Shown here: piece by piece, positions 14,135 to 16,565 of the stretch | How positions within the stretch are numbered: position 1 is the first letter of the stretch | How the letters are laid out: every line of letters begins with the position of its first letter | Assembly (NCBI RefSeq): GCF_003334335.1 | Contig: NZ_QOWQ01000005.1 | Length of the DNA: 64,000 bases | DNA from: Escherichia coli | Lineage (GTDB): Bacteria; Pseudomonadota; Gammaproteobacteria; Enterobacterales; Enterobacteriaceae | Direction: 5' to 3' (one strand) | The notes under the pieces: generated by a model | Told to the model about the DNA's origin: nothing | The model's input: the letters and a program-made list of their open reading frames with translations, nothing else | Database searches by the model: none | Position numbers and translations under genes: made by a program

Positions 14135-15751
14135 ATGCTCAGTCAAATTCAACGCTTTGGCGGCGCGATGTTCACGCCAGTGCTGCTGTTTCCCTTCGCC
14201 GGGATTGTGGTGGGTCTTGCCATCTTGCTGCAAAACCCGATGTTTGTCGGGGAATCACTGACCGATCCGAACAGTTTATTCGCGCAAATCGTACACATTA
14301 TTGAAGAGGGCGGTTGGACGGTATTCCGTAATATGCCGCTGATTTTTGCTGTCGGTTTACCCATTGGCCTTGCTAAGCAAGCGCAGGGGCGTGCTTGTCT
14401 GGCGGTGATGGTGAGTTTCCTGACCTGGAACTATTTCATCAACGCGATGGGAATGACCTGGGGAAGCTACTTCGGCGTCGATTTCACTCAGGACGCGGTG
14501 GCAGGTAGCGGTCTGACAATGATGGCCGGGATTAAAACCCTCGATACCAGCATTATCGGCGCAATTATCATTTCCGGCATTGTGACGGCGCTGCATAACC
14601 GTCTGTTCGATAAAAAACTGCCGGTTTTTCTCGGCATTTTCCAGGGGACGTCTTATGTGGTGATTATCGCCTTCCTGGTGATGATCCCCTGTGCCTGGCT
14701 GACGTTGCTCGGCTGGCCAAAAGTACAAATGGGGATTGAATCTCTGCAAGCGTTCCTGCGTTCGGCGGGTGCACTTGGGGTCTGGGTTTACACCTTCCTC
14801 GAACGTATTCTGATCCCAACCGGTTTACACCACTTCATCTACGGACAGTTTATCTTTGGTCCGGCAGCTGTTGAAGGCGGCATTCAGATGTACTGGGCGC
14901 AGCATCTGCAAGAGTTCAGTTTGAGCGCCGAGCCGCTGAAATCGTTGTTCCCGGAAGGCGGTTTTGCCCTGCACGGTAACTCAAAAATCTTTGGTGCCGT
15001 GGGCATTTCTTTAGCGATGTACTTCACTGCCGCACCGGAAAATCGGGTAAAAGTGGCGGGCTTGCTGATTCCCGCAACCTTAACCGCCATGCTGGTGGGA
15101 ATTACCGAACCGCTGGAATTTACCTTCCTGTTCATTTCACCGTTGCTGTTTGCGGTACACGCCGTGCTGGCGGCCTCAATGTCGACCGTAATGTATCTCT
15201 TTGGTGTGGTGGGCAACATGGGCGGAGGTCTGATTGACCAGGTTTTACCGCAAAACTGGATCCCGATGTTCAGCAACCACGCGGATATGATGCTGACCCA
15301 AATCGCCATTGGGTTGTGCTTTACCCTGCTGTACTTCGTGGTTTTCCGCACACTGATTCTGCAGTTCAACATGTGCACGCCGGGACGTGAAGATGCGGAA
15401 GTGAAACTCTACTCAAAAGCCGAATACAAAGCCTCGCGAGGCCAAACCACCGCGGCAGAGCCAAAAAAAGAGCTGGATCAGGCTGCCGGTATCCTGCAAG
15501 CCCTGGGCGGGGTCGGCAATATCTCCAGCATTAACAATTGCGCGACGCGTTTACGTATTGCACTGCATGACATGTCACAAACGCTGGATGACGAAGTCTT
15601 TAAAAAGCTGGGAGCGCACGGCGTCTTCCGTAGTGGCGATGCCATTCAGGTGATCATTGGTCTGCATGTATCTCAGCTGCGTGAACAGCTCGATAGCTTA
15701 ATTAATTCTCATCAATCAGCAGAAAATGTTGCCATTACGGAGGCAGTATAA
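14135..15751 (+). CDS. glvC: PTS glucoside-family EIICB component, intact fused IIC-IIB (538 aa)
   Basis: Start at [10 protein letters not shown] with SD aagagga; IIC membrane domain plus C-terminal IIB domain with CATRLR phosphocysteine motif; single uninterrupted frame. Confidence 0.8.
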
Positions 15752-16565
15752 TGACCAAATTCTCAGTGGTTGTCGCAGGCGGTGGAAGCACCTTTACGCC
15801 AGGCATCGTGTTGATGCTCCTGGCGAATCAGGACCGTTTCCCGCTTCGTGCACTGAAATTTTATGATAACGATGGTGCGCGGCAGGAAGTGATTGCCGAA
15901 GCCTGTAAAGTCATCCTTAAAGAAAAAGCGCCGGACATTGCGTTTAGTTACACCACCGATCCTGAAGTGGCATTCAGCGACGTTGATTTTGTCATGGCGC
16001 ACATCCGCGTCGGCAAATACCCGATGCGCGAACTGGATGAAAAAATCCCGCTGCGCCACGGCGTTGTTGGTCAGGAAACTTGCGGACCCGGCGGAATAGC
16101 GTACGGCATGCGTTCCATTGGCGGCGTCCTGGAACTGGTGGATTATATGGAAAAATATTCACCAAATGCCTGGATGCTCAACTACTCCAACCCGGCAGCC
16201 ATTGTCGCAGAAGCCACGCGTCGTCTGCGCCCGAATGCGAAAATCCTCAACATCTGTGACATGCCAATCGGTATTGAAAGCCGGATGGCGCAAATTGTTG
16301 GGCTGCAAGATCGCAAACAGATGCGCGTGCGCTACTACGGCCTGAACCACTGGTGGTCGGCGATATCCCGCAGTTTCAGAAAGGGTTAATGAGTCAGCAA
16401 GTGGCGGTGGAAAAACTGGTCGTGGACGCCTGGGAACAGCGTTCATATCAGCACCTGTGGCAGGCGATTACGTTGTCGAAAACGGTACCGAGCGCCTCGG
16501 TCGCCAAAGCTATTCTGGATGAGTTGCTGGAGGCCAACAAAGCGTACTGGCCAGAGTTACGTTAA
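15751..16565 (+). pseudogene. glvG: 6-phospho-alpha-glucosidase (GH4) pseudogene with internal deletion and frameshift
   Basis: N-terminal 212 codons ([13 protein letters not shown] ... RYYGLNHWW) in one frame; C-terminal about 70 codons ([11 protein letters not shown] ... WPELR) in another frame from about 16357; about 160 codons of the central domain absent. Confidence 0.75.

Follow-up and report, generated by a model that had tools for sequence, protein, structure and literature searches.

A broken 6-phospho-alpha-glucosidase gene beside an intact fused PTS permease gene in the glv locus of Escherichia coli

What is left of a sugar pathway when the uptake protein is intact and the gene for the enzyme that should process its product is not? 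This question is raised by the glv locus of an Escherichia coli genome (assembly GCF_003334335.1, contig NZ_QOWQ01000005.1), of which we analysed a stretch of 64,000 nucleotides, referred to below as the window. In it a gene for a permease of the phosphotransferase system (PTS), glvCB, is followed by the remains of a gene for a 6-phospho-alpha-glucosidase of glycoside hydrolase family 4 (GH4), here called glvG'. An original prediction, made from the letters alone, had recognized the glv locus and had regarded its glucosidase gene as broken. Family matches and identity to MG1655 b4556 bear out both statements. The reading that we favour, and to which we would give a probability of about 90%, is that the window contains the known chromosomal yidP-glvCB-glvG module of E. 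coli with its hydrolase destroyed and its permease in the ancestral intact state. The locus is already annotated and long known, and the window holds its commonest allelic form.

How was the glucosidase gene broken? When glvG' is aligned with an intact allele from the same species, that of O157:H7 (1323 bp, 440 amino acids), there is one gap only, of 508 bp, and in the parts of glvG common to both sequences 6 of 815 positions differ. The intact allele contains GAACCACT twice, at nucleotides 594-601 and 1102-1109, and the window is without the intervening 508 bp. A single 508-bp deletion between 8-bp repeats is the signature of replication slippage or of microhomology-mediated deletion, and glvG' is a clean textbook case of the latter. 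The prediction had spoken of a deletion of roughly 0.5 kb plus a frameshift. The size was right, but there is no frameshift beyond the deletion itself: because 508 = 3 x 169 + 1, that is 3n+1, the loss of this segment changes the frame on its own and a second lesion is not needed.

The deletion removes residues 201-369 (169 residues). Upstream of the junction, the open reading frame (ORF) of the N-terminal fragment has the 212 codons that had been proposed for it, but its native part ends with ...RYYGLNH (His200) and not with HWW, and the stop is reached at 16389. Downstream, the expected seventy or so C-terminal codons do continue in another frame and are 73 in number (16344-16565). Over its 222 bp this remnant matches the O157:H7 allele at every position; an incidental ORF within it begins with GTG at 16353. 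The NCBI Prokaryotic Genome Annotation Pipeline (PGAP) flags glvG' as "frameshifted" in all sampled carriers of the deletion.

Could so short a gene still encode an enzyme? Two features speak for a naturally short or split functional GH4 protein. Its N-terminal fragment has kept the GGGS NAD motif (residues 10-13), Cys169, Asp170 and His200, as mapped onto GlvA of Bacillus subtilis (1U8X) and AglB (6DUX), and its ATG overlaps the stop codon of glvCB (TAATG), by which the two genes would be translationally coupled. However, intact GlvG aligns over residues 1-439 with the Klebsiella pneumoniae 6-phospho-alpha-glucosidase 6DUX (E 7e-274) and again over residues 1-439 with B. subtilis GlvA 1U8X (E 9e-224); a GH4 protein of this kind is thus normally about 440 residues long. 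Relatives that align end to end over 440 residues leave little place for a functional protein that lacks 169 of them and whose two parts lie in different frames; nowhere in glvG' is there a single frame long enough, at about 440 residues, to span the complete fold. The missing segment includes Tyr263, the equivalent of GlvA Tyr265 by alignment offset. In GlvA, GXGS is the NAD+-binding motif, Cys171 and His202 are Mn2+ ligands and Tyr265 is catalytic. With the roles so assigned, glvG' has the N-terminal NAD+/Mn2+ motifs of a GH4 enzyme and lacks its catalytic tyrosine. Nor was the short gene created during assembly, an artefact ruled out by the identical junction in 2617 independently assembled complete genomes. 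The original prediction had left room for a naturally short protein; the alignment to full-length GH4 enzymes shows instead that a central segment is missing. We give next to no credence to the idea that the short glvG is a working enzyme or a sequencing or assembly error.

The permease gene, on the other hand, is whole. As had been predicted, it is one uninterrupted frame of 538 codons (the ORF listing and the translation give 0 internal stops across 14135-15751) and combines a IIC domain with a IIB domain that carries CATRLR: within one polypeptide, Pfam PTS_EIIC covers amino acids 10-346 and is followed by PTS_EIIB at 453-482, with the motif at 469-474. The protein matches the NCBIfam family TIGR02005, "alpha-glucoside-specific PTS transporter subunit IIBC", from end to end, scoring 954.7 bits where the curated cut-off is 607.3 bits and with amino acids 2-523 covering profile positions 1-524 of 524. 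Its identity to the alpha-glucoside IIBC of Klebsiella pneumoniae is 81%, likewise end to end. Essential in this family are the CATRLR-type cysteine motif of IIB and the GITE motif of the glucose-family IIC. The CATRLR region of glvCB can be aligned with the IIB structures of E. coli PtsG, 1O2F and 3BP3, and GITEP is found at amino acids 322-326 of its IIC. A Pfam domain scan of the protein found no IIA domain. In every genome sampled PGAP has the orthologue begin at the site that corresponds to 14135, and AGAGGA stands just upstream of it. A 625-codon ORF from 13874 was considered as the true permease and rejected, its additional part being an in-frame upstream stretch without stops, which runs over the 5' end of yidP, a gene of the opposite strand. 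Coordinates of these features, and of others to which we return below, are collected in Table 1.

Table 1. Features of the glv locus and its borders; positions are those of the window.
Feature	Position	Strand	Basis or remark
glvCB, intact fused alpha-glucoside-specific PTS enzyme IICB (EIICB) permease	14135..15751	+	538 codons plus stop; ORF and translation
Codon 369 of glvCB, CAG (Gln) in the window, TAG (amber) in K-12	15239..15241	+	comparison with MG1655
CATRLR motif of EIIB with phosphorylatable Cys469	15539..15556 (aa 469-474)	+	inside the Pfam PTS_EIIB match
glvG', pseudogene of GH4 6-phospho-alpha-glucosidase, 815 bp	15751..16565	+	identical to K-12 b4556
N-terminal fragment ORF of glvG', 212 codons: 200 native residues and 12 out of frame	15751..16389	+	translation
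Sole remaining copy of the 8-bp direct repeat GAACCACT, marking the 508-bp deletion junction	16344..16351	+	alignment with the intact allele
C-terminal remnant of glvG' (...WPELR), codons 368-440 of the intact gene, 73 codons	16344..16565	+	frame differs from that of the N-terminal fragment
yidP, divergent GntR family regulator, intact	13123..13839	-	ORF; PGAP orthologue intact, 717 bp, in all sampled genomes
34-bp near-palindrome AGAGGTCTACTTTTTCG / CGAAAACGTAGATCTCT in the yidP-glvC intergenic region	13956..13989	.	inverted repeat: 17-nt arms, 88% complementary, 0 nt apart
yidL, AraC-family regulator, downstream border of the module, convergent with glvG'	16562..17455	-	ORF, annotation, NCBIfam scan

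Why, then, is the permease known from K-12 as the product of two genes? Between yidP and yidL, at the place on the chromosome where the window has its two genes, MG1655 is annotated with glvC (b3683), glvB (b3682) and glvG (b4556, an 815-bp pseudogene). The original prediction had given this split correctly and had suspected that the source strain differs from K-12 at this point. It does, by a single nucleotide. Over 13900-16700 (2801 bp) the window and MG1655 differ only at position 15239, where the window has C and K-12 has T, and the division into glvC and glvB in K-12 is explained by the amber codon that this T creates. Between the two copies of the pseudogene (15751-16565) there are 0 differences. 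The window is collinear with K-12 over 14838-64000, with 4 mismatches from 14.8 to 40 kb, the amber site among them, and from this near-identity it follows that the amber is a recent event of the K-12 lineage. In a survey of 5426 complete E. coli genomes, C at 15239 (CAG) was found in 3926, using 55-mer seeding that works only with C, and T (amber) in 348; the latter, in the rows sampled, are K-12 laboratory derivatives or O16:H48 genomes of the size of K-12. The fused permease is the ancestral, majority state, while the split of K-12 is the derived, minority state that arose later by a single nonsense mutation. It is a private mutation of K-12 and not the normal gene structure.

The deletion in glvG is likewise not a feature of the source strain; it is a polymorphism of the whole species. 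Its junction is present in 2617 of the 5426 genomes (about 48%), counted with a 46-mer that matches only across the junction. Another 1650 (about 30%) possess the central 508 bp and with it the full 440-codon gene, O157:H7 being an example. Between them, these groups cover the 4269 genomes in which most of the locus is present; the remaining genomes, about 1150 (about 21%), match at the yidL end only. In the B2-like strain UPEC129, for instance, yidP, glvCB and glvG are all absent and yidE adjoins yidL. (In the same strain the adjacent sulfatase gene, yidJ, has a frameshift according to its annotation; extracted locus 4244-6861 and 8740-10232.) Hence there are three species-wide states: the complete module, the module with the 508-bp deletion and no module at all. 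A table by Touchon et al. of genes variably present among E. coli groups includes glvC (PMC2617782).

Two sets of observations weigh against the reading that we favour, and both concern variation among the strains that carry the deletion. For this comparison we added 16 deletion carriers and 6 full-length alleles to the window, MG1655 and O157:H7 and so used 17 complete deletion-carrying loci and 7 full-length loci; O111 strain 11128, one of the added carriers, whose locus is incomplete at the permease start, was used for its annotation only. The first set bears on the origin of the deletion. The allele of the window is the same as that of K-12 and of about half of the species, so that the lesion would be old and inherited, and its single origin is the simplest reading. 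Yet loss of DNA between the two copies of GAACCACT always gives the same junction, and recurrence at these repeats would therefore look exactly like descent. Moreover, within about 180 bp of the junction the carriers have two left-flank haplotypes (16071-16320: TTCCG versus TCACG), each of which recurs, exactly or nearly, in full-length alleles. The left flank of the window itself is identical to that of some full-length alleles and differs from that of other carriers, and the haplotypes on the flanks form a mosaic. To this extent, a single ancient origin is unproven. However, such a pattern is also explained by homologous recombination, a frequent process in E. coli; on the right flank the carriers do not differ from one another except by one later nonsense change, and as a group they form a large, coherent part of the species. 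The mosaic haplotypes of the 24 sequences fit both recombination and recurrent deletion. That the deletion arose repeatedly at the same 8-bp repeats, and not once in the ancestor of A/B1-type lineages, seems to us rather unlikely. We continue, then, with a lesion that was acquired once and has been inherited since.

The second set bears on the permease. Permease and yidP are both intact in each of the 16 natural carriers whose locus is complete (the window is one of them), the amber being found in K-12 only. This could mean that they are still in use and not merely undecayed. Several roles that do not need GlvG can be imagined: uptake of glucose or of another substrate, sensing or signalling linked to the PTS, or hand-off of the phospho-glucoside to another hydrolase. 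If purifying selection has kept the orphan permease and YidP in the deletion lineages for such a role, then the permease of the window is a functioning orphan transporter and not an undecayed relic. Polymorphism among the carriers, with 27 synonymous against 6 non-synonymous changes in the permease, agrees with this suggestion, as does the fate of the glvG remnant, which has half the length of the permease gene and has gathered lesions. In 4 of 17 carriers a CAG-to-TAG change (Gln to stop) is found in the C-terminal remnant, at the equivalent of 16461. In 3 of 17 the glvG start has changed from ATG to GTG (equivalent of 15751), the same base turning the permease stop from TAA to TAG. In O111:H- 11128, IS1203 lies inside the remnant, beside the junction (extracted locus 1483-2696).

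But the control fails. The dead remnant is also rich in synonymous changes (9 against 5 non-synonymous), and most of the polymorphisms are shared with full-length alleles; for these two reasons we reject the selection test as evidence. The variation among carriers would seem largely to predate the deletion or to have come in by recombination. No small indels were found in glvCB or in the glvG remnant among the sampled carriers, which implies that the time elapsed is too short for decay to tell us much. What is more, loss of the permease through the amber has had no apparent cost for K-12; in CFS3292 the IS5-like element ISKpn26 at the 3' end of the permease has clipped it to 529 amino acids (extracted locus 2171-3151); and the fifth or so of genomes in the third state do without the whole module. 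A scan of 13700-16800 found no sigma-70 consensus promoter (0 against 2.4 expected), which is weak negative evidence on expression, and terminator-like hairpins in the same interval occur at chance level only. All in all, retention of the permease by selection appears unlikely, and a permease that is undecayed after the loss of its hydrolase remains the explanation that we prefer.

What would the loss of the hydrolase mean for the cell? Judging by homology with AglA/AglB and GlvC/GlvA, an intact module would take up alpha-glucosides (e.g. isomaltose, palatinose and maltitol) through the PTS and phosphorylate them at O-6 via IIA-Glc, and the phospho-glucoside would then be cleaved to glucose-6-phosphate and the aglycone. 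The 508-bp deletion destroyed glvG, removing the equivalent of the catalytic tyrosine and shifting the frame. With residues 201-369 lost and the frame shifted, release of glucose-6-phosphate via the glv pathway would consequently be impossible. We infer that, as regards growth on alpha-glucosides, the locus is cryptic or without function. If expressed, the permease would draw phosphate from IIA-Glc (Crr) and would accumulate an alpha-glucoside 6-phosphate that cannot be metabolised. It is therefore reasonable to suppose, as the original prediction did, that the permease would import a phospho-glucoside which the cell is unable to hydrolyse, but this depends on expression of the operon.

Published observations on E. 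coli are of interest here. Growth on isomaltose and related sugars requires both a heterologous permease and a heterologous glucosidase (PMC5309279). The heterologous alpha-glucoside permeases depend on crr, and a Bacillus permease/hydrolase pair in E. coli requires the E. coli crr; the glv locus of K-12 is called cryptic (PMC5309279). Strains with the full-length allele may be able to use palatinose, isomaltose or maltitol, while strains like the source strain should not be able to do so. In the literature we found no paper that ties the full-length E. coli glvG allele to growth on palatinose. Belonging to phylogroup B2, the type strain of the species probably lacks the module. Negative results are on record for it with palatinose, turanose, maltitol and alpha-methylglucoside (PMC4334874). 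Neither the 8-bp junction repeat nor the frequencies of the three states in the population (about 48%, 30% and 21%) may have been spelled out in the literature before, but this is a minor addition. The use of these results is in the curation of pangenomes and metabolic models, and they have little import beyond annotation.

The surroundings of the two genes can be described briefly. The local order, like that of K-12, is yidE, yidP on the minus strand, an intergenic region of 295 bp, the two plus-strand genes and convergent yidL. The NCBIfam matches of YidP, which are GntR-family equivalogs (PhnF, HutC and the trehalose operon repressor among them), all lie below their curated cut-offs; from the kind of these matches we take YidP to be of the HutC type, and it is presumed to regulate the glv module. 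The 34-bp near-palindrome between yidP and glvC is a plausible candidate for a YidP operator, its half-sites GGTCTAC/GTAGATC resembling operators of the HutC/DasR type. The motif TAGATCTCT of this palindrome occurs again at 13843-13851. At the other border, strain SC516, which has a full-length glvG, has yidL cut to a 75-bp fragment beside a degraded IS200/IS605 transposase gene (extracted locus 3471-3847). Farther away, the divergence between the window and MG1655 is mosaic and amounts to 1-2% from about 42 kb on, suggesting a recombination boundary near 41-42 kb. At about 61855 the window has a G that is absent from K-12, some 20 bp from the 3' end of rph, which is annotated in MG1655 as "truncated RNase PH"; going by the sequence, the window probably carries an intact rph+ rather than rph-1. 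A second 1-bp difference between the window and K-12 is found at about 61929, in the rph-pyrE intergenic region.

Intact relatives of the module are known, the closest of them within the species. O157:H7 has the same module and the same gene order, with the PTS IIBC WP_000952127.1 and the 6-phospho-alpha-glucosidase WP_000160122.1; its allele keeps the 508 bp (codons 201-369) and encodes the enzyme of 440 amino acids. The permease WP_000952127.1 is found unchanged in several carriers of the deletion, while that of the window is a slightly different variant. Outside the species, the module corresponds to aglA/aglB in Klebsiella and to glvC/glvA (malP/malA) in Bacillus subtilis. In Klebsiella pneumoniae the same two-gene logic is seen in AglA, an EIICB, and AglB, an NAD+/Mn2+-dependent 6-phospho-alpha-glucosidase (6DUX). 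With AglA and AglB, E. coli is able to use isomaltose and the isomers of sucrose (PMC5309279, citing Pikis 2006). The permease GlvC/MalP and the hydrolase GlvA/MalA of Bacillus subtilis belong to the same two families, TIGR02005 and GH4 respectively. The Bacillus operon has the order glvA-glvR-glvC and an RpiR-type regulator, whereas the window has a divergent GntR-type YidP and places the permease first and the hydrolase second. The Klebsiella system is functional; in the window the hydrolase is a pseudogene.

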